IMG/VR virus record: IMGVR_UViG_2700988920_000001
Coordinates: 13,838 to 77,837 of that record
Origin: a virus
Lineage: Duplodnaviria > Caudoviricetes
Strand: one strand, 5' to 3'
DNA: 64,000 nucleotides
Positions 1,466 to 63,416 of this stretch are shown here, piece by piece; position 1 is the stretch's first letter; each line of letters begins with the position of its first letter. Made by a program: the position numbers and the translations under genes. A model generated the notes under the pieces. That model was not told the DNA's origin. It saw only the letters and a list, made by a program, of their open reading frames with translations, and made no database searches.

Positions 1466-1480
1466 TTGGTCTAAGACCAA
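1466..1480. repeat. 15-bp palindrome TTGGTCTNAGACCAA copy 1 (TAA centre)
   Basis: TTGGTCTAAGACCAA, intergenic, within a promoter-like region. Confidence 0.95.
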
Positions 1481-1520
1481 GTTTAATGGTATAAATGATT
1501 GACTAATCGCATACCGGAGA

Positions 1521-1901
1521 TTGCAAATGGCTACTGAACTTCCGCATCGCTACACGTTAGTTGTAGCTTTACAAATTGGCTCTCAAGCTGACATGGTTAA
1601 AGGCATGGCCGAGTTATCAAAAATTCTGCCTGAACACATCGAAGCTGACGAAAAAGGCTGGAAAGTTAACAACATCAACCCTGAATTTGTAGACAAAGTG
1701 AAGGCTGTCTTCAAAGAAGATAAAGTGAAGCTGACTGAAGACTTCGAGATCAACTTCATGTTCTATCTTGGCTGGGTTGTTGGTAAACGTATGACTACGC
1801 TAGTCTTGAGCCACGAAGAGCCTGAGCACCACTTCAACTCTACGCCTTGGAAGTGGGCTGGACACAAGGTGGCGAAGAATGAAAGTAGCAACGACAGTTA
1901 A
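1521..1901 (+). CDS. Hypothetical protein
   Basis: 126-aa ORF with GGAG RBS and phage-typical codon use (start could be ATG 1527). Confidence 0.75.
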   Translation: MQMATELPHRYTLVVALQIGSQADMVKGMAELSKILPEHIEADEKGWKVNNINPEFVDKVKAVFKEDKVKLTEDFEINFMFYLGWVVGKRMTTLVLSHEEPEHHFNSTPWKWAGHKVAKNESSNDS

Positions 1902-1926
1902 TCTCATAGCAAGCGTGATGACAGGG

Positions 1927-1955
1927 TTGTATTTCACTATGTTTATTGTTAGTAT
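1927..1955 (+). promoter_or_regulatory. sigma70-type promoter
   Basis: TTGTAT-N17-TAGTAT. Confidence 0.6.
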
Positions 1956-1961
1956 TACCTC

Positions 1962-2051
1962 GTCCTACTGACAGGACTCCTTGTATTTCGCTTGTTTTGA
2001 AGCAAGACACTGCGGCTTTTACTTTACCCGGCTTTATGCCGGGTTCTTTTT
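1962..2051 (+). ncRNA. Candidate small RNA or attenuated leader
   Basis: ~90 nt between promoter and intrinsic terminator ACCCGGC-tttat-GCCGGGT-TCTTTTT; no ORF. Confidence 0.5.
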
Positions 2052-2108
2052 GTCTTAAATATACCTAATGGAGTACAATTGTTTGGCCCTAGCAGGGCTG
2101 GAGTTGTT

Positions 2109-2369
2109 ATGTTTGAACGCATTACCATAGCTGGACTGCACAGCAGCCCTAAGACCTTCAAGTACGGCACAATCGTGCGAATTCTTAGAAAGAACGGAGC
2201 CAAGCCGTTAGACTTATTCAGAGTAGAGAGAGAAATGTACGAGCACGGCCGATCTACTTTTAAAAAGTTCACGTTAACTGACTCAAGTGTTAAAGTTCTA
2301 CCTAAGTCCAATCATTCTTCCAGGAGAAAATCATGGCTAAACCTGCCAGTATTAACCTCTCAACAGTGA
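2109..2369 (+). CDS. Hypothetical basic protein
   Basis: GGAG RBS before ATG 2109 (ORF track starts at 2079). Confidence 0.5.
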   Translation: MFERITIAGLHSSPKTFKYGTIVRILRKNGAKPLDLFRVEREMYEHGRSTFKKFTLTDSSVKVLPKSNHSSRRKSWLNLPVLTSQQ

Positions 2370-4792
2370 AGCGCGGCGACACCTATATGGTGGACTTCTT
2401 CTTTACCGATACCGACGGAACGACAGACATTTCTGCTGTCACTATCGACGCTCAGGCAAGAAGAGAGATTGACGGAGCTTTGTGGTTTGACCTAAAGCCT
2501 AAAGTCGTTGACGCGTCAAAGGGGCACTTTAGAATCCACCTTACCGGAGACGAGACCAGAGCAATAACAGAATCCCCTGTTAACTCGTTCTCAGGTATTT
2601 ACGACATTCAGTTCAGTTGGCAAGGCCCATCTGAAATATACGTGTCTACCATTATCGACGGCTCTATTTCAATCTCTAAAGATGTCACTCAGCCAGTTTC
2701 GCTTATGAACACTGGGTCTAATCCTGGCGCGCCTACCCCTGCCGCGGATCAGACTGTAAACGTCTACTTCAGTCTCGATCCTGGCACGCCTAATTACAGT
2801 GACGTGGTAACTGCCGAAGAATTGACTCCAGTGCAGTATCAAATTGCAGCTTCGATGGGTTTAGCTAACGTCAATGTAATCGATGAAGTTGGCGAAGCGG
2901 TTGCGCTTACCAAAAAGTATCGAGATGAAGCAGCAGCTATCGTTACTGGCGGTACTGCAACCGTCGATCCGGAGCCAGGTAAGATCCCGTTAGCAGACGA
3001 AAAAGGTAAGATTCGCGAAGGGTGGCTTCCTGATGTAGCAGTATTTTCCTCGAAGTCTGCCGTTACCGCAGTGCAAACTCTAGCACATGAACAGTTTGCC
3101 GCTTCAGGGTTTATCAATTACGGCAAGAACATTGTAGCCAGCTTGTTCCCTACCATTAACGAGGGTTTGAATTGTCGTATCGACGCACCAGATATGCTGC
3201 TAATGGGTCGTGTCGTCACTAGTCAGCAAGGAGGTTCTTCAAAGACAGCTTACCCTGTCGTAGCCGTTGCAGGTTTCGTGGTTAAGATTTTAGGCGTTAA
3301 CGATCGACCTTCTATTACAGGCGCGAGGGTTAAATTCCCAAAATCACCGGACGGTACGGTTACTTACAATAAGTCAACGGGAGAGTCAGTAACACACGCC
3401 GACCAATCAGCCGCTTTCTTATCGGCGGACGCTGACCCTAGTGTAGAGGTTGTTACCAATCGAGTTGATGTGTATGGGTTTGAGTTCGGCAAACGAGAAA
3501 TAAACCAATCCAAACCGTTTCTGTACCTATGCGGGTGTAACCAATCACAAGCTACATCCATTGACGGTATAGATACCGTTGTAGGAGACAATAACCCGGT
3601 ATTCGATGGTGACACTTCTGTAGGTAAAGGGGTTAATCTATTGAACGCAGACACCGAGCAAAGGATCCGATTAGTTAACAACCCCGACAACAATGTTTGG
3701 GTAGAAGGTGACACTATCTACCAGTTTGATGTTCAGCAAATAACTATTGCTGGCCCAGGTAACGGAGACTGGAAGAATATTAATCCTGCTAAAGGCGACT
3801 TTTTATTCGATGACAACAGACCTGTGCTGTCAAAAGCTGGGCTACCGTTCGTTAAGTCTTCCGAACAAGGTGTGTTTGAAGACGGTAAAGGTAACTACTT
3901 CCTAGTGTGCGGGTCAGTCCCTAGACTTAACCAAGGTGCTTTCCACCCAACATACAACCCTGAAGGTGTGTCTACATTCATGGCCGGAGGAACTTGGTCT
4001 AAACCGTACTACGCTCACAACTACATAAACTCTACTGCCAGTTGTTTTAAGTTCAACCCTTCCGATTCATTGGAAGACGGATTCATTCGAACTGTTGGAG
4101 GTAAAGTCTGGGTAGGTAGCATTGAGAGCGGATCATCTGGTCACCCTAGTAATAAATCGTATGAAGTTATTTACCCTTCTGGTCAAGGAGGGGTAGTTGA
4201 CTGTCGTCGATCTGCCGAAGACATGGGAAGTAGAGAGGAGGCATCTAAGATAGCAATTAAATATGTCAATGGTTCCTACAGAGGAGAAGAACTTTACAAC
4301 TCAACCACTGTTTCTGGCGAGTTTACATTTACATACACTACAGATCTGTCTGGACTAGTTACGCTGCCTAGAGAGTGTCTGGATGATACAGTAGAGTGTA
4401 TCGTTGGGTCAGTACGTACAACCCTACAAGTGACTGACGGCAAGGTGACGCTACCTGACGGCGCTAAGACTGTAACGTTCACCACTAGAGCTAATGTCAC
4501 AAAACCATCTAAAAATAAGCCAGTATTAAACGCATATGATGGGGTTTTAGGAGTGTTTGACGCTACAAAGAAACATACGTTGCTGGATTTTACCATAGAA
4601 AACGGAATCATATCTGACTACAACGCAGGGTCAGCTCCGTATAGTGCAAACCTCATCTATCAGATCAGTAATAGCGGGCAAGCCTCTCTAGGTATTATTT
4701 CTGATGGAAAATATTTAGAACTCTCTACCTCTTACGGTTACACAAAGAATAAAGCTCGTGCTGGAGTACAAATACCCGGAGTCGACCTTTAA
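2333..4792 (+). CDS. Tail fibre / receptor-binding protein
   Basis: N-terminal BppU-like baseplate-attachment pattern (GHFRIHLT...YDIQF); GGTATVDPEPGKIPLAD and AASGFINYGK motifs that I recall from Vibrio phage fibres; beta-rich body. Confidence 0.75.
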   Translation: MAKPASINLSTVKRGDTYMVDFFFTDTDGTTDISAVTIDAQARREIDGALWFDLKPKVVDASKGHFRIHLTGDETRAITESPVNSFSGIYDIQFSWQGPSEIYVSTIIDGSISISKDVTQPVSLMNTGSNPGAPTPAADQTVNVYFSLDPGTPNYSDVVTAEELTPVQYQIAASMGLANVNVIDEVGEAVALTKKYRDEAAAIVTGGTATVDPEPGKIPLADEKGKIREGWLPDVAVFSSKSAVTAVQTLAHEQFAASGFINYGKNIVASLFPTINEGLNCRIDAPDMLLMGRVVTSQQGGSSKTAYPVVAVAGFVVKILGVNDRPSITGARVKFPKSPDGTVTYNKSTGESVTHADQSAAFLSADADPSVEVVTNRVDVYGFEFGKREINQSKPFLYLCGCNQSQATSIDGIDTVVGDNNPVFDGDTSVGKGVNLLNADTEQRIRLVNNPDNNVWVEGDTIYQFDVQQITIAGPGNGDWKNINPAKGDFLFDDNRPVLSKAGLPFVKSSEQGVFEDGKGNYFLVCGSVPRLNQGAFHPTYNPEGVSTFMAGGTWSKPYYAHNYINSTASCFKFNPSDSLEDGFIRTVGGKVWVGSIESGSSGHPSNKSYEVIYPSGQGGVVDCRRSAEDMGSREEASKIAIKYVNGSYRGEELYNSTTVSGEFTFTYTTDLSGLVTLPRECLDDTVECIVGSVRTTLQVTDGKVTLPDGAKTVTFTTRANVTKPSKNKPVLNAYDGVLGVFDATKKHTLLDFTIENGIISDYNAGSAPYSANLIYQISNSGQASLGIISDGKYLELSTSYGYTKNKARAGVQIPGVDL

Positions 4793-4796
4793 TATA

Positions 4797-4820
4797 AAGG
4801 GCGTCTCATTAGACGCCCTT
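4797..4820 (+). terminator. Intrinsic terminator-like hairpin
   Basis: AAGGGCGTCT-catt-AGACGCCCTT right after the fibre gene. Confidence 0.7.
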
Positions 4821-4874
4821 CTATTTGCTTGCTAGAATACAAAAGTCAACAGACAACTACCTTAATCAACTAAC

Positions 4875-4889
4875 TTGGTCTGAGACCAA
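4875..4889. repeat. 15-bp palindrome copy 2
   Basis: TTGGTCTGAGACCAA just upstream of the RBS of MTase 1. Confidence 0.95.
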
Positions 4890-4908
4890 AACCTATAAGG
4901 ACTGAACA

Positions 4909-5544
4909 ATGGCTACTGCCTCTATGAAACGTTCTGCGAAGGACGACAAAATCAATTTGTACACAACACCGGAATGGGCAACTCAAGCGCTTATAGATAC
5001 TGGCGAATTAGACGGTTGTATGTCTTTCTGGGAGCCTTGTTGCGGCATGGGACACATCTCTAACGTCATCATTCACAATATTGAGAACCGTTGGACGCCA
5101 GGCAAGACAATCGCCTCTACTGACCTGCACGATCACGGCTATGAGTTTGGTACGCCTGACATTGACTTCCTGATGTCTAACGACATCGGTGCAGACTGTG
5201 TCATCACCAACCCACCGTTTGACCGTGTAGGGACGCACTTCTCTATGCTGAAGCATGCGCTGTCTATGCCTAACGTGAAGAAGGTGTGTTTCTTTATGCC
5301 TATGCAATTTCTTGAAACACCTTACCGTGCTAAGTGGCTGATGGATACTGAATGTCTTGTTCGCGTATGGTCGTTTGCTGATCGCGTTAAATGTTTGACC
5401 AAAGGCGATGAATCTCTGTCAAAGGACAACACAGCTAAACACTTTGCTTGGTTTGTCTTCGAGAAGAACCACTACGGTGACGCGGCTATTGGTTATCTGT
5501 TCAAGCCTGACGAAATGCGCCGAGGTAAGAAAAATGCAAAATAG
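4909..5544 (+). CDS. DNA adenine (N6) methyltransferase, small phage type
   Basis: YTTP, EPCCGMG (SAM motif I), TNPPF (motif IV), AWFVF. Confidence 0.85.
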   Translation: MATASMKRSAKDDKINLYTTPEWATQALIDTGELDGCMSFWEPCCGMGHISNVIIHNIENRWTPGKTIASTDLHDHGYEFGTPDIDFLMSNDIGADCVITNPPFDRVGTHFSMLKHALSMPNVKKVCFFMPMQFLETPYRAKWLMDTECLVRVWSFADRVKCLTKGDESLSKDNTAKHFAWFVFEKNHYGDAAIGYLFKPDEMRRGKKNAK

Positions 5545-6055
5545 ATACTTCATGTTTAAAAGTCGTTTCATCTCTCACGAGATCATTACTCGATTCAACG
5601 AACTTAACAACGAGCGCGAAGCTATTCTGAGCAGTCTTCGAGAACAATTCGGGTTGGTAGGCTTCGTTTTTAACCCAGACGGAACGCCAAAATACCTTCT
5701 GAAAGAGTTGATGTCAGACTTCGATGAAGACCGATTTTCTCCTGGCCGTATCAACCGATCAGGTAACGACTTCTTAGGGCTAGAACCTACTGACGCTGAG
5801 ATTGTCGCGGTATGTAAGAGCGCTGTGTCGATCTCTTTGTCAGAAGTTGTGTTGGATTGTCTTGAGTTTAAACCACAAACACACCTGCACGGAGAACCTT
5901 CTCCTGAGATTAAACTTGTTGAAGGTATCATCATGGTAAAAGTCATTGAGTACAACGACTTACCCTATGACCCACCTGTCTCGTTTGTGGAAATCTCAGA
6001 GAGCCTGTACAATGCTCCTATCTTGAAGTTGTTAGAGAAACATCTAACCGAATAA
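5534..6055 (+). CDS. Hypothetical protein
   Basis: Likely start MQNRYF after GAGG RBS, overlapping the MTase stop. Confidence 0.7.
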   Translation: MQNRYFMFKSRFISHEIITRFNELNNEREAILSSLREQFGLVGFVFNPDGTPKYLLKELMSDFDEDRFSPGRINRSGNDFLGLEPTDAEIVAVCKSAVSISLSEVVLDCLEFKPQTHLHGEPSPEIKLVEGIIMVKVIEYNDLPYDPPVSFVEISESLYNAPILKLLEKHLTE

Positions 6056-6079
6056 AATCAAAACCTGTAAGGACTTAGC

Positions 6080-6562
6080 ATGAAGATACTCGACGCATAC
6101 CACTTCGATGTCGAGGCCAGGAACGTAAACGACCAAGCTCAAAACCAACACCTTGAGTATATTTTAGGCTTGGTCGTAGGCTGTAAAGACTTAGGTGCGA
6201 TAGACGCCAGCACGACAATTTACGTACCGTACGACCTTTGGGTTGTACATGGCGGAAAAGGCTGCATTACCCCTTACGGCGTACAGCTAGTCCATGGCTT
6301 AGATGAGGTGTGTACCAGTTTGGAAGGTAAGCACATCCCAAGACGAAACTTTTTGGTCCCAGACCAAGCCTCACCCACCGGACAGATAGTACGAAAGCAC
6401 TTCTGCTCTTACGCGATAAACCCGTCTGGAATGATGACAAAAATCAATGACAGACCTTATTGTGGACAACGTGGAAAAGGTGAAGAAGTTACTTATGTTC
6501 TTGACGAAGTTACTTGCCCAGAGTGTCTTATGGAGTTAAAACAGGTGAATCAATCTCATTAA
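6080..6562 (+). CDS. Hypothetical protein with C-terminal Zn-binding motif
   Basis: TAAGGACT RBS; YC...VTCPEC. Confidence 0.7.
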   Translation: MKILDAYHFDVEARNVNDQAQNQHLEYILGLVVGCKDLGAIDASTTIYVPYDLWVVHGGKGCITPYGVQLVHGLDEVCTSLEGKHIPRRNFLVPDQASPTGQIVRKHFCSYAINPSGMMTKINDRPYCGQRGKGEEVTYVLDEVTCPECLMELKQVNQSH

Positions 6563-6588
6563 CCCCCAAAAAAGAAGGAGACTCACCC

Positions 6589-6999
6589 ATGGGTGACCTA
6601 ACCAAGAATATTAGTAGGCACGAGGTGGCATGTAAGTGCGATGGCCGATTTGGCCCATGTAACGCGCAAACTATGGATTGGGAAACCATCCAGGTAGTGC
6701 AGGAAGCTTGCGACCACTTCGCTAAGAAGCTAGGGCTGAACAAGGTTACGCTAATCATTAACAGCGGCTGTCGCTGCCAGCCTTACAATGACAAACCTAA
6801 ATCTGAAGGTGGCGTAGGCGCGACTAAAGGTAGCTACCATAAGTTGTTCTGCGCTTTGGACCACAAGATCACTCAGATCACACCCAAAGAATTGTATGAG
6901 TACTACATCGAAAAATACCCTGGCAAGTACGGCATCGCCTTGTACTCAAAATCTGGCTTCGTACACTTAGACTCACGACCATATAAGGCACGTTGGTAA
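6589..6999 (+). CDS. Endolysin, peptidase M15 family
   Basis: LTKNISRHEVACKC, SGCRCQPYN, GSYH...ALD, FVHLDSR; AAGGAG RBS before ATG 6589. Confidence 0.88.
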   Translation: MGDLTKNISRHEVACKCDGRFGPCNAQTMDWETIQVVQEACDHFAKKLGLNKVTLIINSGCRCQPYNDKPKSEGGVGATKGSYHKLFCALDHKITQITPKELYEYYIEKYPGKYGIALYSKSGFVHLDSRPYKARW

Positions 7000-7001
7000 T
7001 T

Positions 7002-7358
7002 ATGAATAAACCGCAAAGATTGATCTTAAATCTGAAGGGCGGTGATGAGGTGAGGCTTGGCGGCCTCACCCTATTGACTGTTCACGAAGTCGGTCAGCCT
7101 ATGCTGAAAGCGACTATCTCAGCTCAAATCCTAAAAGGTGATGAGCACTGTATCTTCGACCACAACGAAGACAACTGGAAAGACTTAGAGTCTCTGGATT
7201 CTGTTGTTGTTGGTCTTGGTGACCGTTTACTTATCGGTACGGTCGAAATTCTGGTAGCATCTATCAGCAAACGATACGGCGAAGTGCGTCTGTCGTTTCA
7301 GTCATATGACGAAGAGACTGCTAAGCTTTTGAAAAACCTAAAGGAATCATTACGATGA
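7002..7358 (+). CDS. Putative tandem CsrA-like protein
   Basis: Two segments resemble the CsrA beta-strand pattern (LILNLKGGDEVRLGG..LTVHEV; GLGDRLLIGTVEILV...GEVRLSF). Confidence 0.5.
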   Translation: MNKPQRLILNLKGGDEVRLGGLTLLTVHEVGQPMLKATISAQILKGDEHCIFDHNEDNWKDLESLDSVVVGLGDRLLIGTVEILVASISKRYGEVRLSFQSYDEETAKLLKNLKESLR

Positions 7359-7954: not shown

Positions 7955-7980
7955 CAACCAACGATACCCGTAGAGGACTT

Positions 7981-9333: not shown

Positions 9334-9346
9334 TAGGTTTGTTTAA

Positions 9347-9375
9347 TTGACGGCTACTTCGTTTAGGAGTAGCCT
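9347..9375 (+). promoter_or_regulatory. sigma70-type promoter with internal inverted repeat
   Basis: TTGACG-N17-TAGCCT; GGCTACT/AGTAGCC. Confidence 0.55.
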
Positions 9376-9411
9376 TATCATTCAATCATCTAATCAATAG
9401 AGGTTAATACC

Positions 9412-9699: not shown

Positions 9700-9722
9700 T
9701 CCACAGTTCAAGGAGTACAGGC

Positions 9723-12686: not shown

Positions 12687-12687
12687 T

Positions 12688-12702
12688 TTGGTCTGAGACC
12701 AA
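12688..12702. repeat. 15-bp palindrome copy 3
   Basis: TTGGTCTGAGACCAA immediately after the primase stop codon. Confidence 0.95.
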
Positions 12703-12748
12703 AAGTATTTAGCCCCGTATTAGGGGCTTTAACCTGTAAGGATTAAAA

Positions 12749-13480
12749 ATGATAAAGCTAATGAATGAAGACTGTTTGTCTGCTATGAGAAAGTTAGAAG
12801 ACTCTAGCGTTGACTTAGTATTGACTTCACCTCCATACAACATGAACCTTAGAATACGTAACGGGAAATATTGTTCTAGACAGATAGTCAAAGAAATCAG
12901 CACCAAGTACAAAGCGTTCGATGACAACCTTCCTATGGATAAATACTTTGAATTTAACAAGTCAGTCATCAATGAGTGCCTGAGAGTTTCTGACTTAGTG
13001 TTCTACAACGTTCAAATACTTACAGGGAATAAGCCTGCTTTGTTCCGTCTTATGGGAGAGTTTCACGATAAGCTGAAAGAAGTGATTGTTTGGGATAAGA
13101 TTAACGCTCAGCCAGCCATAGGCGCTAACGTTATGAATTCTCAGTTCGAGCTTATTCTTGTGTTGCAGGACTCTTATCCTGAAAGCCGAGCGTTTAAAAC
13201 AGCACAATTCGACAGAGGCACTTTGTCTAATCACTGGCAGATAAAACGTGGCAAAAAAGTGCATAAAGAACACGGAGCTGTGTTCCCAGAAGAATTGGCT
13301 GACAGAGTGATATCTAACTTCTCAAAAGTCGGTGATGTGATCTTAGACCCATTCATGGGAACAGGAACTACTGGCGCTTCTGCGGTAAAACTTGACAGAA
13401 GTTTTATAGGCATAGAGCTAGACAAAGACTATTACGAGTTTTCTGAGCAAAGGATTCTTGGTCTGAGACCAAAGGAGTAA
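12749..13480 (+). CDS. DNA methyltransferase, beta class (N4-C/N6-A)
   Basis: [10 protein letters not shown]-terminal, [21 protein letters not shown]. Confidence 0.93.
13458..13472. repeat. 15-bp palindrome copy 4
   Basis: TTGGTCTGAGACCAA encodes the last residues of the MTase and abuts the next RBS. Confidence 0.95.
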
Positions 13481-13484
13481 ACTT

Positions 13485-16216: not shown

Positions 16217-16231
16217 TTGGTCTCAGACCAA
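16217..16231. repeat. 15-bp palindrome copy 5 (opposite orientation, TCA centre)
   Basis: TTGGTCTCAGACCAA between stop codon and terminator. Confidence 0.95.
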
Positions 16232-22149: not shown

Positions 22150-23208
22150 ATGCTTAACCTATTTACCGATCCGCACCTAGGGTTGTCAGCACGTACCAAC
22201 ACGTCAGCCAGCTCAACTAAGCTACTCGATTCGAAGATTAGCCGAATTGCTGTAGGCATTACTCAGAAGTATCTAAACCTGATTTGTGCAGGCGACTTGT
22301 TCCACCGCAGCCACAACCGCGAAGACGTGATCGCTGACGGAATCAAAGTCGCGCAAGGCTGTGACATCGTTATCGGCGGCAACCACGACAACACGAGCCG
22401 TACGGACGACAAGTCATCACTTGATATCGTGGCTAAGGTTGCTGACTCAGTCCTTATGACTGCAGTCGGCCAGGTTGAAGTTCACGCAGGTCTGCAGTTT
22501 GACTCGGGCGAGATTGTGACAATTGTCCCTCACCACTCAAACCAAGAACTGTTTGACCAAGCGATTGAAGAGGCTTGCAAGTCAAAAGGTGACTTAGTCA
22601 TTCTGCACTGCAACTTCAATAACCCGTTTGTAGACGGCATCGACACAGCGCTTAACCTGACTCCTGCACAAGCTGAACAACTGCTTAAGTCATACAGCTT
22701 CGTCGTCATTGGTCACGAGCATAATACGCGTTGGGAAATGAACAACCGTCTACTAGCTTTGGGTAACACTCACCCGACAGGCTTCAGCGACATCTCTAAC
22801 AAATACGTTTGGCACTTTGACAAGACTAAAGAAAATCCTTGGTCTAAGACCAAAATTTGGGATAAGTCGACAGGCTTTATGTGTCTGACCGCTTCTGACA
22901 TCTTCGACCTACCAGAGTCAGAGTTTCTAATCGAAGACGGTGCCACACCACCTAGCTTCGTTGACATCGTCGGCGACTTGCCAGCAGAAGACATGCCTGC
23001 ACTCGCTCACCGTATCGGTCTGATTTGGAAGCACTGGAATCCGTTCATGGTGCGCAACCAGGTTAACGCGGTAACAGAGAAAACTGAGTCTCTGATGGAA
23101 GAAGGTTACAAGATCGAAGACTTCAGCTCTAAGATCATGGACGGCCTGCAAGAGTCGCCTGAGTTGTTGGTGAAGTTTAAATCTGAACTTGAGAAGGTTG
23201 GAGAGTGA
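22150..23208 (+). CDS. SbcD/Mre11-like metallophosphoesterase nuclease
   Basis: DPHLG, GDLFH, GNHD, GHEH. Confidence 0.9.
   Translation: MLNLFTDPHLGLSARTNTSASSTKLLDSKISRIAVGITQKYLNLICAGDLFHRSHNREDVIADGIKVAQGCDIVIGGNHDNTSRTDDKSSLDIVAKVADSVLMTAVGQVEVHAGLQFDSGEIVTIVPHHSNQELFDQAIEEACKSKGDLVILHCNFNNPFVDGIDTALNLTPAQAEQLLKSYSFVVIGHEHNTRWEMNNRLLALGNTHPTGFSDISNKYVWHFDKTKENPWSKTKIWDKSTGFMCLTASDIFDLPESEFLIEDGATPPSFVDIVGDLPAEDMPALAHRIGLIWKHWNPFMVRNQVNAVTEKTESLMEEGYKIEDFSSKIMDGLQESPELLVKFKSELEKVGE
22839..22853. repeat. 15-bp palindrome copy 6 (intragenic)
   Basis: TTGGTCTAAGACCAA inside the SbcD-like gene. Confidence 0.95.
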
Positions 23209-27353: not shown

Positions 27354-27368
27354 TTGGTCTGAGACCAA
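27354..27368. repeat. 15-bp palindrome copy 7 (extends to 21 bp)
   Basis: GGTTTGGTCTGAGACCAAACC 27351-27371, intergenic. Confidence 0.95.
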
Positions 27369-35150: not shown

Positions 35151-38100
35151 TTAAGTTCTTGAAACCATTTTAGACAGCTTGGCGATCTGTCCGTTGCTTG
35201 ACAAATCTTCAGCAACTTTTTGTTTGCCCATTTCAGCGGCTTCTTCCATAGCCCGGCCCAAACGCTCTTCAAAGTCTTCGTTGCCAGTTGCATCAATCAT
35301 ATACTTATTATCGTATGTGATGTAATAGACGTTTCCGCCACTGTTGCCAGATACTAAGTTGTTTGATGCTTGGTTGTTTAGGATATACCCGTTGGTCTCA
35401 GGAGTGAATATCTCTCTTCCTGTTTCACCGACTAAGTAGCTCTTGCCTGCCTGTACGGGACCACCAAATTGACGGGACCCGGAAATGTTTTCGCCAATGC
35501 CAGACGCCACACCAGTCATTAGACCAGCGGCAGCAGACGCGGCACCAGCTAGGAGCATAGTACCAGCAGCAGCAGCCGCTGCTGCACCAAACGAGGCAAT
35601 GTTAATGAACATTGCTGCAGGACCCCAAGCTGCGGCTAAACTTGGACCAAGACCAAGCATTTGAGTGAAAAACGCCAAAGATGATGCTGCACTTGCCTGC
35701 TCAGTAGCAGCAGTAGCCATATTAGATGCCTGTTTGACACCTTCATTCGCTACTTTAGCTGAAGTTACCATAGAGTCCATGGCAATCTCTTCGGTAGTGA
35801 AGATCTTCTTCATAAGATGGTTAGCGGCCATTTCTGCGCCAACTCTAACCATAGTATTTACTACCGTCCCTAGCATCTCTCTTGAGATGTTTTTGGCCGC
35901 TTCAGTCCAGCTTTGCTCCATGAACAGAGCTTCTTCTATGTTATTGGCTACAGCTTCTGACCAGTCATCGCGCCATTTAGCCAGATGCTCATGTTGGCTG
36001 TCCCAATAAGACTGTTCAATCTCCTCCTTAGCCTCGGCAATCATGCGAGCGAACTCGACTTCCTCAAGGCCGTATTTAGCCATGATCTCTTTACGACTTT
36101 CAAGGTACTCAGATAGACGCTCCATGTCGGTAATGTACTGCATAGTACCCTTACCTTCTTCGCCAAGACCCTTACCTTTGCCGAAGTCCTTCATCATTTT
36201 GGCGAAGTCTTTCTCGGCTTCTTTGGCTTTCTTCTTCTCGTCTGTGAGTCGCTTGTTCTCATCAATAAGCTTTTGCAGCTCAGGAAGTTGCGCCTTAATT
36301 GCTTCGGTTTCTTTGATGAAAGCAGCACGCTGTTGTTCGGACAGCATGTTAAACGCTGAAGTAGATTGGAAGTTCTCTCTGCGCGCAATAGCGTTACGGT
36401 ACTGAGCAAGAGTGTTTTCTTCAGACGCCTGTTTGTTGCCTTTTAGTTTCTCGTTAGCTACTTCAAGCTTGGTTGCGAACTCTTTAACCTCTTTGGCGTG
36501 CTTTCCGAAACCCTCGGCTTTCATCATGTCTTCTTGCAGAGACAACACAAGTTTGCTCTGTTCAGCGTTGAGCTTGTCAGTCTGAGCAATTATCTGTTCG
36601 TTAAGCTGAGCTTGTTTACGAAGAAGCTCAGCATACGCTTTAGTGTCAGAAGCTGTGCCAGTGTTAATGTCCTTTATTTTCTGCATCTCTGTGGCGAGTT
36701 TTGCAGTTTCGTTGGCGAACTTCTGATTTAGTTGGAGGCGAGCCGAGTCGACGTTAGCGATCTGCGCCTTTAACGCTTCCTCTTTGGTTATTAGATTTAA
36801 CTTAGCTTGGTACTCGATATTCTCGTTCTTCATGCTGAGAATGGTCTGAGCACGCGTAGACTCAGCAGCAAGAGAGTTATCTTTAAGAATCTCAGTTTCT
36901 AGTCGAGCAAACTCAAGGTTGCGTCGGTTGAACTCTTCTTTGCGTTTAAGTTCGGCTACTTGCTCTTCAGTGAGAGTTACACCGATACCCAATTCATTGT
37001 TTGTTGCTTTAGCCGTTTCAAAGAATTTAGAGAAAGTTTCTTCCGCTTTAGGTGTCCCTGTGCCAGCGTTGCCAGCGTCAGCACCAATATCAGCAGCAAT
37101 CTTAGAGAACGAAGCGCCTCCTGCCATGTCAGCTTCTGTCTTGAACATTGGCAAGAACATCAGGTACATGTCTCGTTCAGCTTTACGGAAGTTCTCGTAC
37201 TGCTCGACTACCCATCCTATATTATCGGCCAGGAACTTAGCAGAGTGAGAGGCGGTGACAATGGCCTGGCTTACGCTGTCAAAGAAGAAGTCTAGATCGT
37301 TGTCGACTAGTTCCATGATTGCGTAGTTTAGTTTTTTAACTGCTGGCTGCGCCTTCTCGAAGGCATCGATCATCTTGGATTGGATTTTAGAGTTGATGAT
37401 CTGCCACTGACCTGATGTTGATGTAGCCATGAAGTCCGCCATCGCCTTGCCAGCGCCGTCAACAGAGGTCTTAAGTCGGTTGGTCTCTCTTACGATGTCC
37501 TTCAAGTTAGCTTGGAAAGCGATCATTGCTGGTGCAGCACGAACGCCAAAGATAGATACGATGTCGGCAGTAGTAGCGCCAGCTTTCTCTAACTCTTGCA
37601 TGATTTCTGTTAGAGAGTACATGTCGCCTTCTGTGTCACGAACGCTAACGCCTAGATCACGTAGTACAGAAGCTACTTTGTCGGTTGGTTCTAACAAGTT
37701 CACATACGCACGACGAAGAGCAGTACCAGCACGAGAACCTTTAATACCTACGTTGTGGAAGGTTTCCAGGGCGGCTACGGTCTCTTCGATGCTTCCGCCA
37801 GCAGCATGCGCAACAGGAGCAACGTAAGACAGAGACTTAGACATCTCTTTGATGGTTGAGTTAGAGTTGGTGATTGCAGCAGCAAGAATGTCGGTAACAC
37901 GAGTAGCGTTCTTCAGAGACTCAGCCGTAGACGCGATAGACATACTAAAGCCAAGCATGACGTTAGTCATGATGTCGGCAGACTCGTAGACGTCAATCAT
38001 ACCGATCTGAGCTAATTGCAATGAAGGTGTCAGTGCGCCAATGGCTTGCTGAGCATTCAGACCAGCCATACCAAGAGCGACCATACCTTCAGCCGCCTGT

Positions 38101-40705: not shown

Positions 40706-40956
40706 CCTTTATACGCCTCCGAGTCGTCGATAAAGAACCCCCCTGAGCTAGGAGTTAGTTTAACCATACATCCGCGAACGAACAATGTGTCTGGGTGTTC
40801 TATCTTTGTTGGGTGTGTTGTGTAATCTACTCCGTTGAAATACGAGACGGTGATAGAAGTGTTTTGGTCTGGGACCACAGCAACTTCAGGTTTAGAAACG
40901 TTTGCACCAAAATTAAGGATCACTTCTTTCTCGTAACGTGGTACTGGTCTTTTCAT
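40702..40956 (-). CDS. Hypothetical protein in tail operon
   Basis: GAGG RBS, 84 aa. Confidence 0.7.
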   Translation of the reverse strand: MKRPVPRYEKEVILNFGANVSKPEVAVVPDQNTSITVSYFNGVDYTTHPTKIEHPDTLFVRGCMVKLTPSSGGFFIDDSEAYKG

Positions 40957-56326: not shown

Positions 56327-56370
56327 ACATCATTCAATGTATTGACATCATTCACTCCATCCCTTATACT
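56327..56370 (+). promoter_or_regulatory. Rightward early promoter with ACATCATTCA direct repeats
   Basis: TTGACA-N17-TATACT; ACATCATTCA at 56327 and 56345. Confidence 0.85.
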
Positions 56371-56408
56371 CTCCCCATACCCACTACTATCCTATAAGGA
56401 CTAATATC

Positions 56409-57924: not shown

Positions 57925-58250
57925 TTACATTGCGAAATTTTGGAAGGTGACAGGGGTGATTTGGGTCACGGTTTGGTGTGAAGTTGTTGCAGCGAGAGCC
58001 GTATGATTTAGAAGTCGAGAAATGGCATATATATATATATATATTTTTTCTAATAAAAAGAAGAAGAATATATAAGCCATTTTTAATACGTTGAACCATT
58101 TGCTTGAAATGCAAAAATGCTTTTTGGCAAAACAAGTGTCAGCCGGAAAATGAACTTTTGTGGTTATTAGGGAGGCCGATTTTGCTTGGACAGCGACTTC
58201 CCCAAAATCGAACCTAACCCCAAAACCGAAAATATATTTACGCATTTCGA
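57925..58250. other. AT-rich non-coding element B (candidate replication origin)
   Basis: (AT)n tract and core homologous to 21110-21430, inside a ~0.8 kb gene-free gap. Confidence 0.55.
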
Positions 58251-58634: not shown

Positions 58635-58663
58635 TTGACCTTTGTACACTCGTACATTATACT
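58635..58663 (+). promoter_or_regulatory. sigma70 promoter with GTACA repeats
   Basis: TTGACC-N17-TATACT; CTCGTACA twice plus TTGTACA. Confidence 0.75.
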
Positions 58664-58707
58664 CCTTACCGAACCCTAACCATTTAATCCAAGAAAGGAC
58701 TAAAACC

Positions 58708-60459
58708 ATGACTGACTTTATCAACCGTGTAGCCAAAATCGCACAAGAGAGCTCAGAGCGTGAAAATGCACGCAATAACCTGAAACAAGCAAAAGATTTG
58801 CTTGGCGCAATGAATCAATCTGAGATAGAAGCGGCTGAACAACTGTCCGTGAAGTACGACTCGCTTTCACGGCCATGTGTCGCTTTGATCACTCGCGCAC
58901 TCGCGGACGTTCTGCGTCGCCACCGTGAGAACGGGATACCTTTGACCCCGTTTGCCAAGATCAATGAAGTAACTATTTCCGATCCTAATTCCATTGTCCG
59001 CTTGCTGACTTCCCGTGGTAAGCGCATCCCAACGACGCCATTCATGCGATCTAAGGAAGTAGACAAACACCCAACGCTTAACGCACTGGCTTTAATGGCT
59101 GGTATCAACCGAGGCTCGTTCACTTCAGTAACTCAAGGCCGTCAACATTTAAGCGCTAAAGACCTGGAAGCGTGGCGTGATGCGCTATCACAAATCGGCG
59201 TCTATAACGACATCGAAGAATTGGCGGCGCTATCTAACCCTAAAACATTCTTATCCGCTGTCATTGATGAAATCATTAATCTTGAGTCTTCTATGACGGT
59301 TGAGCGCGTGCAAGAGTGGGCCGAGATGGTGGAGACGGTAGAGCCGGACTCTATCGGCCAAGAGTTTATTGATAGTGAGCTTGCTCGTGCTCGTTCTGTT
59401 ACGCTTCCACACGTCTTTGACTCTATGGTCAACATCTGGCGCGGTCAGCTCATCGACAACGATATTGAGTGTTTTGTGGCTCGTTCGCTGTCTGATGTGC
59501 TAAGCACACGCACGAGCTCACGCCGCTTTAGTCGTGGCCTTCAGAATCTGATCATCTCGGTTCATTCCGGTATGGGTGCGTTTAACTCTCGCGTTAAATA
59601 CCCGGCTCGCAACTACACATCCTATAAACATCGCTATTCGGTGGAAGGTGAGACAGGTCTAACCAGTGACATTCTAATGGCGTACTGCTTCTATCTTGGG
59701 ATTAACCCGGTTGCGATGGTTTACTGGCTGGCGGAGTCTGAGCAGCATAACCCAGGCTCGGCGTTTGCGGTGAAGGGCAGCTACGACCCGTTAGACGTGG
59801 TGAAGTGGGTAGGCACTATCAGCCCAGTTGAGTATGACAAGTTTATCTCGGCGACACTTAGCCTCGGTATTGTGCCTGATGAGATGCGCTTCCCGTTGTC
59901 ACTGCTGGCTGCTAAGTTTGTGTATCCGTGCATGCCTGACTATAACACCCTAGTTAAATCGCTAGGCTCGCAGGGTGACGCGTACCGTCAACCAATTGAA
60001 GAGTATTTATCCGTCCTTGACACGTCGACGGCTGAGTGTCGTTTACCACGTCGCTATAACTCGCACCTAGAAGCGGCTAACAGCCATGACATTAAGGTGC
60101 GTGACATCTACGACAACGTGCTGGCTTCAGGTTATTACGTTTACGGCTTGTCGCTTCAACACGGCAACCTGGGCGAGGCGGTTTCTAGTGAAATGGAAGA
60201 TTTAGAGAGCGAAGCACAGATCATCGAGTACGCAAAAGAGAAGCTGATGCAGATGATCGGCGGCTCGGAGTCAGCCTATTGCCATCTAGTTAAAGACAAG
60301 GACGGCGACATCGATCACTCGGCTTCCTGCCAGGCTCGCCCGTTCAGCCCTCGCGAGATGTTAAACGCGGCTAAGCTTTATCGCGGTTTGTTTGAGTCGC
60401 TGTCTAATGCAAGTAAGTCAGATGATGACGACGATCTATTAACGTTGATGAACGGATAA
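58708..60459 (+). CDS. Large early protein with XRE-like HTH
   Basis: AAGGACT RBS before MTDFINR; TLNALALMAGINRGSFTSVTQG. Confidence 0.65.
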   Translation: MTDFINRVAKIAQESSERENARNNLKQAKDLLGAMNQSEIEAAEQLSVKYDSLSRPCVALITRALADVLRRHRENGIPLTPFAKINEVTISDPNSIVRLLTSRGKRIPTTPFMRSKEVDKHPTLNALALMAGINRGSFTSVTQGRQHLSAKDLEAWRDALSQIGVYNDIEELAALSNPKTFLSAVIDEIINLESSMTVERVQEWAEMVETVEPDSIGQEFIDSELARARSVTLPHVFDSMVNIWRGQLIDNDIECFVARSLSDVLSTRTSSRRFSRGLQNLIISVHSGMGAFNSRVKYPARNYTSYKHRYSVEGETGLTSDILMAYCFYLGINPVAMVYWLAESEQHNPGSAFAVKGSYDPLDVVKWVGTISPVEYDKFISATLSLGIVPDEMRFPLSLLAAKFVYPCMPDYNTLVKSLGSQGDAYRQPIEEYLSVLDTSTAECRLPRRYNSHLEAANSHDIKVRDIYDNVLASGYYVYGLSLQHGNLGEAVSSEMEDLESEAQIIEYAKEKLMQMIGGSESAYCHLVKDKDGDIDHSASCQARPFSPREMLNAAKLYRGLFESLSNASKSDDDDDLLTLMNG

Positions 60460-60485: not shown

Positions 60486-60866
60486 ATGGCTACTACATTC
60501 ATTAGATTCATAGAGCAAAAGACTTACGAGATTATGGCAAAGCATGGAGCATTCGTTGCATTCTCTGAAAAGCAGATAGCTCACTGTCTGAAATCTAACA
60601 AAGAAAAAGGTTTTAGTGGTGATAAGCGTGATTACTGGTTGGACTCTATTACGGGAATAAACGTACCTAAAGTTAACATAGCCGATTTCGAAACTGAGAT
60701 CGAAAACATGCAGGTCTTAGAGCGCGAAGACTATCTTAACACTTACTCCAAAGAGGATATAATCCGTCGATATCTGCGCGAAGGTAGGCCTATTAGCCAG
60801 GTTTACTGGTTTGGGTTTACCTATGACGATGTACGAAAGGTGAAAAGGGCCATCTTGAGGAGTTAA
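60486..60866 (+). CDS. Early protein, paralog of 61389-61808
   Basis: KHGAFVAFSEKQ; REDYLNTYSK. Confidence 0.8.
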   Translation: MATTFIRFIEQKTYEIMAKHGAFVAFSEKQIAHCLKSNKEKGFSGDKRDYWLDSITGINVPKVNIADFETEIENMQVLEREDYLNTYSKEDIIRRYLREGRPISQVYWFGFTYDDVRKVKRAILRS

Positions 60867-61388: not shown

Positions 61389-61808
61389 ATGACTACTTCA
61401 TTCTCTAAATTCGTAGAAACCAAAACTAGCGCACTTCTAGACAAGCACGGTGCATTCTTCGCATTCTCTAACAAGCAGCTTGACGAAGGCCTGGAAGAGA
61501 ACAAAGCAAAAGGTTTCAGCGCTGACAAAGCTGACTACTGTCAGGTCGTAGGCGGCATGATTTTGCCTAAGAGCAACGTGGAAGTTTTTAACGCTGAGTA
61601 TGACGCGGTGATGTCTGCGGCTCGTGAAGAGTATCTGAACACGTACACAAAAGCGCAGATCATCGGCTATGAGCTATCGAACCATGAAGCTGGTTACACT
61701 AACGACATTAGCGACACAGTAGACGCGGTTGCTCACCTGGGCTTTACTCGTGACGACGTGCGCGAGGTTTACGTGACTTGGTATAAAGAGAACAAAGATT
61801 ATTTCTAG
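61389..61808 (+). CDS. Conserved phage early protein (AFFAFS...ELSNHE type)
   Basis: KHGAFFAFSNKQ...IIGYELSNHE. Confidence 0.8.
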   Translation: MTTSFSKFVETKTSALLDKHGAFFAFSNKQLDEGLEENKAKGFSADKADYCQVVGGMILPKSNVEVFNAEYDAVMSAAREEYLNTYTKAQIIGYELSNHEAGYTNDISDTVDAVAHLGFTRDDVREVYVTWYKENKDYF

Positions 61809-61821: not shown

Positions 61822-61865
61822 ACATCATTCAACCTATTTACATCATTCAACTGATAGGGTAACAT
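61822..61865 (+). promoter_or_regulatory. Early promoter cassette
   Basis: ACATCATTCA x2; TTTACA-N17-TAACAT. Confidence 0.8.
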
Positions 61866-61915
61866 TGCTCTATCAGTTGGAAACAACAATAAACAACCTT
61901 TAAGGACTCAATATC

Positions 61916-62446
61916 ATGGCCACAAAACCTAAACTAATCACACTGAGTTTTCCAGTTCCATACGGTACGCAGCCGGACAAACAATTCTCTCGCCACGTCC
62001 AGCCAGGCGATCTGATTGTTTGTCCGGCTGCGTATAAGGAGCAATGCTCACCATATTGTGAGGTTATCACCCCTCACTTTTTCACACGTCAAACCGCCGA
62101 AGAGTTAAAGCACGTTAAGCGCGTGATTGTTTGGCCTGCCGTCCCTGGGCATAAGACCAAATTTTTAGAAGCGTTATTGCGTAGCCTGAAGCAAGGCAAA
62201 GATATTGTATTGTGTACGACGCAGGTCAGTGAAACTGGTTTTATCTCGTTGCGCCGCCTCACTCGTTATGCAGAATTAAACGTTTGTGACGTTCAAACAA
62301 TGGAGCGTTGCAAGACTTCAGAGTTTGCTTATATGGCGCTCATCAATGACCAGTGCGATAAGCTGGCAAACAAAATTAATCGTATCCGTTGTTTAACTGA
62401 ACTGAAGAAAGGAAAAAGTGATGCAATCAACAACTCGAAGAGCTAG
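61916..62446 (+). CDS. Hypothetical early protein
   Basis: TAAGGACT RBS, 176 aa. Confidence 0.75.
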   Translation: MATKPKLITLSFPVPYGTQPDKQFSRHVQPGDLIVCPAAYKEQCSPYCEVITPHFFTRQTAEELKHVKRVIVWPAVPGHKTKFLEALLRSLKQGKDIVLCTTQVSETGFISLRRLTRYAELNVCDVQTMERCKTSEFAYMALINDQCDKLANKINRIRCLTELKKGKSDAINNSKS

Positions 62447-62654
62447 CCGCTCAATGCTAGGACTAGCGGTGGCTATGGCCAGGACATCTGTACGAGTAAG
62501 CAATTTAAAACTCTTACGCGAACTAGATAGACCGTACCACATCCCTAAGAAGCGCGAGCCTAAACCGCGCAAAGTCTGGTACACCGTTGACTCTCCTGAA
62601 GTCATCGCAGCCACAAAACAGTTTAAGGAGAAACACTCTCATGAAACTAAGTAA
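62418..62654 (+). CDS. Small basic hypothetical protein
   Basis: AAGGA RBS; overlaps neighbours. Confidence 0.6.
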   Translation: MMQSTTRRASRSMLGLAVAMARTSVRVSNLKLLRELDRPYHIPKKREPKPRKVWYTVDSPEVIAATKQFKEKHSHETK

Positions 62655-63057
62655 AACACACCTCATGCTATCAACTAAAGATCTAGGCGGCTTCCGCGGT
62701 TTTGAAGTTGAGCGCGATAAAATCCCGGCGCTAGCTGGCTTAACTGAAAAGGATCTACAGTGTCGCAGCACGATGGCAATGGTAGCGCTTCAGGTTAGCC
62801 GTTACGTTTATATCAATAATTTTTCTGATGCTAATAAGCGTGGGATGCTTTGCTTGCAAGGATCGCTTCCAGTTATCGAAGAAGACAACATTAAACTTGA
62901 TTTTGATTCTTGTACGGTGGGCATCTTCCCGACTCCTATTGCAGTTAACTGGTACATTATCGAAGGCGACTCAACTTTATTCCACGGTGTGACCGTCACA
63001 GTTGAACAGGCTAAGCAAGAAGCCGAGAATAAAGTCTCTGAATTATTCGGGAATTAA
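62641..63057 (+). CDS. Hypothetical protein
   Basis: TAAGGAG RBS before MKLSKT. Confidence 0.75.
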   Translation: MKLSKTHLMLSTKDLGGFRGFEVERDKIPALAGLTEKDLQCRSTMAMVALQVSRYVYINNFSDANKRGMLCLQGSLPVIEEDNIKLDFDSCTVGIFPTPIAVNWYIIEGDSTLFHGVTVTVEQAKQEAENKVSELFGN

Positions 63058-63084
63058 TCCCCCTACCTATAAGGAATCAAAACC

Positions 63085-63399
63085 ATGCAAACCGTATTAG
63101 CCGTTTTAATTATTCTGTCCGTGTTATCTATCGCTTGGTCGATGGGCTTCTTTAAGCGTTACCAGCTCATTAACGTTCGTGATATTGACGAGCGTGTGGG
63201 CGAGGTTCGCTTCAATATCGACTACCTGGTATTTAGTCCGCTAAAGCGCACGCTTAAAGAGAAATCGGTCAAGGTCGTGCTGTTCGATGGCGACCTGTAT
63301 ATCGATGACGGCTACATGACGCCGCTGATGTGGGAGTCAGAGAAGCTGGCCAACGACACAGCTAAGATGTTGATGGACTTGAATGTGAGTTTGGTCTGA
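63085..63399 (+). CDS. Membrane-anchored hypothetical protein
   Basis: N-terminal TM helix; CCTATAAGGA RBS. Confidence 0.75.
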   Translation: MQTVLAVLIILSVLSIAWSMGFFKRYQLINVRDIDERVGEVRFNIDYLVFSPLKRTLKEKSVKVVLFDGDLYIDDGYMTPLMWESEKLANDTAKMLMDLNVSLV

Positions 63400-63401
63400 G
63401 C

Positions 63402-63416
63402 TTGGTCTGAGACCAA
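63402..63416. repeat. 15-bp palindrome copy 8
   Basis: TTGGTCTGAGACCAA preceded by a partial copy TTGGTCTGAG (63391-63400). Confidence 0.95.

Follow-up and report, generated by a model that had tools for sequence, protein, structure and literature searches.

A lineage-specific palindrome punctuates the early and replication genes of Vibrio siphophages and may be a multi-copy site for a dimeric phage protein

Why does a short perfect palindrome recur at one gene boundary after another in a phage genome? The question arises from a 64,000-nt stretch of a Caudoviricetes virus (hereafter the window), which comprises bases 13838-77837 of the 77,837-bp IMG/VR record IMGVR_UViG_2700988920_000001, rated complete and called G000 here. 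G000 is laid out as a long plus-strand early/replication array, with genes for a Dda-like helicase, primase, SNF2 helicase, family A polymerase, SbcCD-like nuclease, deoxynucleoside monophosphate (dNMP) kinase and GroES, followed by a minus-strand virion operon. The original prediction, made from the letters of the window, had noticed a 15-bp palindrome, TTGGTCTNAGACCAA, at gene boundaries. All eight exact copies that it had listed were recovered (Table 1), as were its near copies at 6353 (one mismatch) and 40864 (two mismatches), together with a further two-mismatch copy at 35642 that it had overlooked. These 11 matches at ≤2 mismatches compare with a mean of 0.26 and a maximum of 1 in 100 dinucleotide shuffles. 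The whole 77.8-kb genome carries 12 exact, 2 one-mismatch and 2 two-mismatch copies, the exact copies outside the window lying at genome positions 1142, 2266, 3927 and 6137 and a one-mismatch copy at genome position 9298. TTGGTCTNAGACCAA is a non-chance element, selected for its sequence. We read it as a recognition sequence, specific to this lineage, punctuating the early and replication genes, and tentatively favour the explanation that its copies may be multi-copy sites for a phage-encoded dimeric DNA-binding protein.

The closest GenBank relative of G000 is Vibrio phage phiVP505, of V. parahaemolyticus, with 87.7% DNA identity across 93% of a 12-kb probe. Next come ~82-85-kb phages of V. 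crassostreae and oyster seawater (K120 g1, hereafter K120, K478b, 264E42.1, 51E28.1 and others) at ~73% identity. Grouping by capsid protein gathered 23 Vibrio phage records, the only remoter capsid relatives being five records of three Pseudomonas phages (PMBT3, Lana and UAntarctica) at 32% identity. The group is one of Vibrio siphophages of roughly 80 kb, with an apparently virulent lifestyle in the G000 clade. Conservation in relatives, a check that the original prediction had proposed, was readily confirmed: phiVP505 carries 11 exact and 4 one-mismatch copies, K120 33 and 6, and K478b 33 and 5. The four genomes (12, 11, 33 and 33 exact copies) are only 73-88% identical in DNA, and orthologous copies stay exact across ~27% DNA divergence while their flanks have diverged. 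PMBT3 contained no repeated palindrome with 6-nt arms, and none of five Vibrio phages that encode AphA-like regulators (MAR10, R01, D65, 431E45.1 and 1.232.O) carries the motif at ≤2 mismatches. An exact-pattern scan of IMG/VR, not used for distribution, returned single copies in unrelated contigs among the matches listed. A literature search, with subscription journals outside its reach, found no paper describing the motif or these phages. MAR10 (NC_019713.1) has repeats of its own: TTTACTAAA-type 9-mers occur ~60 times, TTACT-N3-AGTAA dyads 14 times, and a 21-nt word containing AGGAGG (CCTAAGTGCCTAGGAGGTTTC) 8-9 times, the last looking start-associated.

Across 251 Vibrio genomes, scanned as candidate hosts, 12 single copies turned up while the reversed control gave 19 matches, which is chance level; none of the five named species V. 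diabolicus, V. atlanticus, V. rotiferianus, V. anguillarum and V. chagasii carries a copy. The original prediction was to fall if the sites were not conserved in relatives, bound no protein and had no link to synteny breakpoints, or if they exactly matched a known host regulator site. Since relatives conserve the sites and hosts carry them at chance level, neither alternative refutes it. This makes the palindrome a phage motif rather than part of a host regulon.

Seven of the 15 IMG/VR loci found by a helicase profile search (35-37% helicase identity, G+C content ~0.6) share a different palindrome, CCTGTAWWTACAGG; a related-locus search with the ligase alone returned no match. Whole records of this sister lineage (G001-G004) contain 12, 10, 14 and 10 copies when up to one mismatch is allowed (the reversed control gave 0), and in G003 an ATG lies 7-28 nt downstream of 9 of the 12 occurrences of the 12-nt core. 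Of the four sister records, three encode a tyrosine integrase that has an arm-binding domain, whereas PF00589 had no match in G000. Because of these integrases the sister lineage is taken to be temperate, and a repressor-type role would be natural there. Since the sister lineage has another palindrome in the same position, the motif tracks the phage lineage and not the host. A conserved position with a changed sequence points to a putative phage-encoded reader co-evolving with its sites.

These distributions bear on whether a host protein is the reader. A Vibrio regulator or nucleoid protein could bind the copies and so couple early genes to host physiology, and the phage does encode a regulator (P0001, described below) homologous to the host quorum-sensing regulator AphA. 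The arms also resemble TGGT...ACCA half-sites, which we take to be those of GntR-family regulators; this is a lead and not a test. The count in the 251 Vibrio genomes largely refutes the idea: unlike the operator of a host regulator, the motif does not recur upstream of host genes above chance level. In addition, the phage showed no enrichment of the AphA-box consensus (at 3 mismatches, 1 match against 3 in the control), and the GC-rich sister lineage, whose hosts presumably differ from Vibrio, keeps its other palindrome in the same place. A host-factor site is the least probable of the readings considered here.

Both 7-bp arms are invariant while the flanks differ. A flank logo widened the dyad by one position on each side, to Y-TTGGTCT-N-AGACCAA-R, and a purine (A or G) follows the palindrome in every one of the 12 G000 and 33 K120 copies. 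The central base is a G or a C in 10/12 copies of G000, 10/11 of phiVP505, 31/33 of K120 and 22/27 of K478b (first 42 kb), and the strand polarity of the centre base varies among genomes. Among one-mismatch copies, 13 of 16 are changed at position 7 or 9, beside the centre (own tally). Isolated half-sites were not enriched (28 against 19.8 expected in G000, 25 against 21.9 in K120), indicating that the unit recognised is the full dyad. The arms hold AGACC/GGTCT, and a restriction-site idea was rejected: those words are neither avoided nor enriched outside the copies.

The original prediction had considered the placement of the copies too varied for a simple operator. It proved less varied than that, since most copies occupy one stereotyped spot: a stop codon, 1-90 nt, the palindrome, 0-45 nt that include the ribosome-binding site, and the start codon. 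In several cases the palindrome directly abuts AGGAG. The annotated K120 genome has 79 junctions between consecutive plus-strand genes, 42 of them spaced by 15 bp or more, and a copy stands in 22 of these 42, 9-55 nt before the next start; placement in G000 is likewise stereotyped. Six further K120 copies lie inside tiny annotated open reading frames (ORFs) that span intergenic gaps and are taken to be spurious. For annotation, the motif marks true gene starts and exposes such spurious small ORFs in K120. The ORF map and flanks bore out the earlier count of six intergenic copies (1466, 4875, 12688, 16217, 27354 and 63402). The claim that none lies in the virion operon holds for exact copies in the window, where that operon has two two-mismatch copies only, but not for the relatives, which have exact copies in the virion region at phiVP505 7435 (head/tail region) and K120 73090 (between tail genes). 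At window positions 40996-41023, between minus-strand tail genes, a run of 28 A stands beside a hairpin, the sense strand reading as a terminator-like hairpin followed by 28 T; the matching place in K120 has a hairpin and palindrome copy 73090.

Table 1. Palindrome copies and associated features (window coordinates unless marked otherwise)
Feature	Position	Strand	Remarks
Exact copy, centre A	1466..1480		after hairpin following gene 1184-1405
Exact copy, centre G	4875..4889		leader of methyltransferase-like gene 4909-5544, 19 nt before ATG
One-mismatch copy (T7>C)	6353..6367		within ORF 6080-6562
Exact copy	12688..12702		1 nt past primase stop; left edge of methylase insertion
Inserted methylase segment	12703..13457	+	N6/N4 DNA methylase ORF 12749-13480 (PF01555, E 9e-36)
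Exact copy	13458..13472		abuts AGGAG, 12 nt before SNF2-helicase ATG 13485; right edge of methylase insertion
Exact copy	16217..16231		13 nt past stop of ORF 15214-16203
Exact copy	22839..22853		deep within SbcD-like gene 22150-23208, encoding P-W-S-K-T-K
Exact copy	27354..27368		10 nt past SbcC-like stop, 21 nt before dNMP-kinase ATG 27390
Two-mismatch copy, weak	35642..35656		within tape-measure gene
Two-mismatch copy	40864..40878		within minus-strand ORF 40702-40956; may be chance
Exact copy	63402..63416		2 nt past stop of ORF 63085-63399
P0002 gene	genome 155-652; K120 14883-15293; phiVP505 pA_0069		no PDB sequence match

Several copies have neighbours of note. At 1466 the left arm, TTGGTC, lies 18 bp upstream of TGgTATAAA (1487-1495) and overlaps the -35/spacer region of a putative promoter that lies behind a terminator hairpin, read from the letters and absent from the consensus-scan listing; the next gene starts at ATG 1527, and K120 copy 36718 has the same arrangement. 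The 124-aa product encoded behind this copy (1527-1898) was considered as a candidate and dropped, with no PDB match and an Atlas model at pLDDT (predicted local distance difference test) 0.40 that gave no usable match. Copy 4875 lies downstream of a terminator-like site (4797-4820) and a promoter-like site (4810-4838), and its K120 orthologue, 41326, has one mismatch. Separate terminator-like hairpins stand just before some copies and just after others; a GC-rich hairpin with a T run follows copy 16217, before the DNA polymerase gene at 16285, and its K120 orthologue, 52618, has the same hairpin. The copies themselves are not intrinsic terminators: none is among the 19 terminator-like sites of window positions 1-20000, and no T run follows the palindrome. 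Promoter-like matches in general were no commoner than in shuffles (21 against 22.8), and the flank logo showed no conserved hexamers. A strong sigma-70-like site (TTGACA, 17 bp, TATACT) at ~56350-56385, in the divergent region before rightward gene 56409-57509, is probably the main rightward early promoter and has no palindrome.

Copies within genes are also conserved. The orthologue of 6353 is exact in K120 (42797) and has one mismatch in phiVP505, that of 22839 is exact in phiVP505 and has one mismatch in K120 (58283) and K478b (58662), and the weak 35642 copy has one-mismatch counterparts in phiVP505 (14208) and K120 (68438). Conserved copies deep in genes comprise 22839 and K120 9221, 60352 and 42797, and K120 copy 56707 stands between convergent genes. 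Identical 12-nt sequences follow copies 12688 and 63402. A partial duplicate of the left arm and centre (TTGGTCTNRG, then 1-3 nt) directly precedes the full copy at window 63391-63401 (TTGGTCTGAG-C), K120 10981 and K478b 23426; these duplicates may be recombination scars.

Several gains and losses of genes fall exactly on copies. Copies 12688 and 13458, which flank the methylase segment, both align to a single phiVP505 copy. The segment is absent from phiVP505, from K120, which has one copy there, and from variants in public runs X1 (an RNA library) and X5 (oyster metagenome DNA). Contigs from four such runs, of related strains and at low depth, were used for presence and junctions only, and not for depth or RNA ends. 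In those of X1 and X5, position 12687 runs directly into 13458, the two sides sharing 16 letters, which confirms that methylase-plus and methylase-minus forms coexist in nature. X5 contigs lose their likeness to the window at 12685/12687, and at 27353 and 27372, flanking the 27354 copy. The 13458 copy falls in the last codons of the methylase ORF, whose last seven codons and stop come from the right-hand palindrome together with the ribosome-binding site of the helicase gene. The nearest relative of this methylase is in Pseudoalteromonas phage Y7, with no palindrome nearby, and the homology stops at the right-hand copy.

Other junctions behave similarly. Compared with phiVP505, G000 has an extra DnaQ-like exonuclease gene, inserted immediately behind the genome-9298 copy, where K120 has other genes. 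At 63402 and genome 1142, G000 and phiVP505 differ in sequence to one side of the copy, and phiVP505 has a different gene after its 63402-equivalent copy. Just before the 1142 copy, at genome ~990-1130, a tandem duplicate of ~67 bp occupies the 3' end of ORF 640-1137; phiVP505 differs there. The early regions of K120 and K478b (7-21 kb) align over ~14% of their length, yet carry 17 and 18 copies, and in this comparison the copies at 23651 and 24810 lie 2-3 bp from the ends of homology blocks. Of 62 homology-block ends, 4 fall no more than 10 bp from a copy, a modest excess over the 0.39 that a uniform null predicts (P ~7e-4). Elsewhere, the segment 24225-24854 (ORFs 24240-24404 and 24407-24865) is replaced by 76 other letters in X1 and X3 contigs, with no palindrome at its ends.

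A crossover site for module exchange was one role that the original prediction had offered. The gain and loss junctions lying exactly on copies uphold this as a description, but as a function we favour crossover being a consequence. The 15-17 bp are the only sequence common to unrelated early genes; copies would therefore be preferred crossover points, which would explain gain and loss exactly at copies as a by-product of a conserved 15-17-bp island. The converse reading makes the copies dedicated recombination sites, the core of a gene cassette, at which a phage enzyme would cut or synapse, inserting a circular or donor segment that carries one copy and so flanking the gene with two, with any regulation secondary. 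It accounts for the methylase flanked by two identical copies where relatives have one, with both forms natural, for the exonuclease gene flush with a copy, for orthologous copies in G000, phiVP505 and K120 that precede different genes, and for unrelated K120 and K478b early genes all separated by the same palindrome; the three partial left-arm duplications resemble junction scars. The clade also encodes a fusion of RdgC with an FtsK-gamma domain, a Holliday-junction resolvase, a ligase and an SbcCD-like nuclease, and the candidate enzymes are an unrecognised recombinase or the RdgC-FtsK-gamma protein with the resolvase and the nuclease. However, the absence of a visible recombinase from the window, which the original prediction had remarked on, extends to the whole genome: G000 has no tyrosine integrase, and Pfam and PHROG scans over its 73 ORFs found no serine recombinase, transposase or HUH enzyme. 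The right-hand methylase junction truncates the gene and the Y7 homologue is palindrome-free, so that this insertion resembles an opportunistic crossover and not a tidy cassette. Other indels, such as 24225-24854, end without a copy, the FtsK-gamma helix differs between Vibrio subgroups that have the same site, and the sister lineage lacks this domain. The same pattern would arise from ordinary homologous or microhomology recombination wherever an island of 15-17 bp is conserved. We regard dedicated recombination sites as unlikely.

A bolder form of this idea would be phage-borne gene capture, in which every early gene is a cassette starting with one copy, and cassettes are inserted, excised as circles and traded by co-infecting phages, in an integron-like manner without an integron integrase. 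The recombining function could be the RdgC-FtsK-gamma protein with the resolvase and SbcCD-like nuclease, or an unrecognised enzyme, and the sister lineage could use a different core. Unlike integron attC arrays, the copies are 15-bp perfect palindromes, and G000 has no tyrosine recombinase. We consider gene capture rather improbable. Alternatively, the palindrome might be a selfish or neutral small repeat of the REP type, miniature and either mobile or gene-converting, that spreads in intergenic gaps without serving the phage. The three-fold variation in copy number among relatives (12 against 33), the centre bias within a genome (C in 26/33 K120 copies), which suggests copying between sites, and the partial duplications beside copies are all consistent with this. 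Against it stand the exactness of orthologous copies across ~27% DNA divergence with diverged flanks, the retention of intragenic copies (22839 and the RdgC 3' end), and the different palindrome kept in the same place by the sister lineage. Moreover, 15 bp is too short for terminal repeats or coding, and no RAYT-like or transposase gene was seen. A selfish repeat is accordingly a still less probable reading than gene capture.

The explanation that we favour, multi-copy sites for a dimeric protein, would work as follows. Each copy would be a double-stranded-DNA site for a symmetric dimer of a phage-encoded protein. Such a protein could act on the whole rightward gene array at once, which is possible since the sites sit at the 5' boundary of a large share of genes. 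Bound between cistrons it could block RNA polymerase, and at 1466 it could occlude the promoter, an arrangement of multi-copy operators resembling that of stoperators.

Which protein could bind the sites? P0001, an AphA/PadR-like protein of 180 aa, is encoded at genome 6188-6730 (7.1-7.6 kb before the window), with a palindrome copy 36 nt before its start. Its best solved match is V. cholerae AphA (PDB 1yg2, E 6.9e-9), and its bacterial relatives are Vibrionaceae AphA proteins. P0001 is conserved in phiVP505, K120 and K478b, has homologues in 56 phage records, all of Vibrio phages, and is the only predicted sequence-specific regulator conserved in the clade. As a candidate binder of the palindrome it is nonetheless doubtful, for reasons given below. 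Host AphA is the quorum-sensing regulator of Vibrio at low cell density, and the phage protein could act as its mimic or competitor. A second protein, RdgC fused to a C-terminal FtsK-gamma winged helix (genome 8170-9336; PF04381, E 4e-94; PF09397, E 7e-18), would be an attractive candidate, being predicted to be symmetric, sequence-reading and linked to recombination; the palindrome itself encodes the conserved C-terminal L-V-S-D-Q of its FtsK-gamma domain. The putative recognition helix of this domain reads GYNQAYRIME in G000 and phiVP505 but GYNRAARIME in K120 and K478b, with an identical site, and the domain was found in 0/5 records of the sister lineage and PMBT3.

The two helix-turn-helix (HTH) proteins singled out by the original prediction were not supported as binders. 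The ORF at 24240-24404 has a weak HTH match only, lacks a conserved counterpart in K120 and gives way to other sequence in natural variants; the other, noted at 58708 (ORF 58642-60459), has no family match. P0002, labelled a 'DNA binding protein' (phrog_624) in relatives, was rejected: it looks like a DenV-like pyrimidine-dimer glycosylase of the endonuclease V family, according to an Atlas feature and a structure search (TM, template modelling, 0.87). The Pfam and PHROG scans detected no ParB/KorB-like, C1-like or phiC31-repressor-like protein. For the sister lineage, Pfam searches on 64 G003 ORFs gave no clear regulator; at a relaxed threshold the only matches in G003 were a ribbon-helix-helix (E 0.01-0.2) and, beside the integrase, an excisionase-like HTH, both weak.

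Several results weigh against a phage-encoded operator-binding protein. The putative recognition helix of P0001 (S-H-Q-Q-V/I-Y-R) is invariant in the palindrome-free MAR10, D65, 431E45.1 and 1.232.O and is the same as in host AphA; P0001 homologues within the clade are 29-30% identical overall, though the palindrome is identical; and a PadR match was found in 0/4 sister-lineage records, which do have palindromes. In a three-way comparison, no G000 protein was shared with G003 yet missing from the palindrome-free PMBT3, and for this reason comparative genomics yields no binder. The main rightward early promoter-like site (~56350-56380) lacks a copy and most copies are not beside promoter-like sites, so that classical promoter repression covers few sites at most. 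The breakpoint test, under a null restricted to non-coding sequence, was not significant (1/17 against 0.88 expected, with a crude gene list). Finally, nearly all copies lie in transcribed leaders, a placement that an RNA-level role fits equally well, and both palindromes can fold, at -5.5 to -7.7 kcal/mol in 4/5 stretches and at -12.3 for one G003 copy, whose flanks extend the stem.

An RNA element is thus a possible alternative. Copies would form a 6-7-bp hairpin with a 3-nt loop upstream of ribosome-binding sites, read by an RNA-binding protein or endoribonuclease; transcripts could be cut into units, their ends protected, or downstream translation tuned. Most copies are on the sense strand between a stop codon and the next ribosome-binding site, and hairpins are predicted for both palindromes, the Vibrio type reaching -6.0 to -7.7 kcal/mol (z -2.5 to -2.8) and the sister type -5.5 to -12.3. 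Variation clusters at positions 7-9, the would-be loop (own tally), and 2/3 non-central variants retain a G-U pair on the sense strand. A contig from the RNA library reads through the primase-helicase copy, a weak point as the library may contain DNA. The arms, however, do not vary as paired RNA would: no compensating arm-to-arm change was found among ~90 exact and 16 near copies, and the outer -1/+15 pair in K120 is C/A in 8 cases, T/G in 7 and C/G in 0, C never being paired with G, which indicates a constraint on sequence and not on pairing. No Rfam match reached the gathering score in the window, and the Pfam and PHROG scans found no RNA-binding or ribonuclease candidate. A DNA site for a dimeric protein is favoured over RNA because the arms are fixed in sequence and not in pairing, because several conserved copies lie deep in genes and one, K120 56707, between convergent genes, and because a dyad that tolerates change at its centre is what marks the site of a dimeric DNA-binding protein.

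Known systems of dispersed sites offer partial parallels. In stoperator systems of the L5 gp71 type, many repressor sites are found in short intergenic regions within operons, together with a promoter site, and the bound protein halts elongation; stoperators are orientation-dependent. Lytic derivatives such as D29 reportedly keep stoperator sites. The working mode proposed for the Vibrio palindrome is similar. Unlike asymmetric stoperators in one orientation, however, the palindrome is a perfect dyad whose centre base has no consistent polarity, and unlike in temperate stoperator phages, no immunity repressor or integrase was found in the Vibrio clade, as judged from G000. KorB sites of IncP plasmids, P1 C1 operators and phiC31 inverted repeats are cases in which one protein coordinates a replicon through a dozen or more dispersed sites. 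The Vibrio copies are likewise dispersed, some at promoters and some far away, and differ in that their sequences are unrelated and the lifestyle is apparently virulent.

Cluster A stoperators are described as asymmetric and read by a monomer in PMC9283540. In the literature on these systems (PMC9283540; PMC5712189), D29 seems to have arisen by deletion from a temperate parent. For T4-type phages, parts of PMC2839356 describe PeSLs, which combine a strong sigma-70 promoter with a terminator stem-loop between small early genes of hyperplastic regions, and whose recombination causes insertions, deletions, replacements and possibly circles. The Vibrio copies resemble PeSLs as short conserved motifs between early genes with a role in shuffling; unlike PeSLs, they have no conserved promoter beside them and their hairpin lacks a T run.

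The closest known description is that of the 17-bp palindrome of Cluster O mycobacteriophages, and the same phenomenon is now found in unrelated Vibrio phages. According to the sections of PMC4351075 drawn on here, the repeat of Corndog and its relatives, TGTTCGGNNNCCGAACA, has 7-bp arms and a 3-bp centre, with 34 invariant copies in Corndog; in those sections its authors (2015) infer a dimeric protein and could not assign a function. In both groups, as far as those sections describe Cluster O, invariant 7-bp arms enclose a variable centre without consistent orientation relative to transcription, tens of copies occur per ~70-80-kb genome, most of them in narrow gaps between genes of the non-structural operon and some intragenic, the sequence is not a motif of the examined host genomes, and indels are bounded by two copies where relatives have one (here the methylase). 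The differences are an unrelated sequence, a 1-bp centre here against 3 bp, and unrelated phages and hosts, which do not suggest common descent. Recombination at conserved repeats has been proposed both for Cluster O (PMC4351075, section 8) and for PeSLs (PMC2839356), in the parts cited. What the present comparison adds to Cluster O is the sister-lineage palindrome, the junction census, and natural forms with and without an insertion in public runs.

If the copies are multi-copy operators, they would provide a global early-gene switch in a virulent marine phage. If they are crossover points, they would explain shuffling of highly variable early regions, which hold host-takeover and anti-defence genes. 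The group is testable, with its three-fold spread in copy number, its sister palindrome and natural variants with insertions exactly at copies, and it is culturable, phiVP505 on V. parahaemolyticus and the K and E series on V. crassostreae.

Two minor features of the window were also recorded. Paralogous early-region DUF7659 genes lie at 60486-60866 and 61389-61808 (E 2e-25 and 2e-35), with no K120 homologue found. AT-rich intergenic stretches include (AT)7 at 21227-21240 and (AT)9 at 58027-58044.

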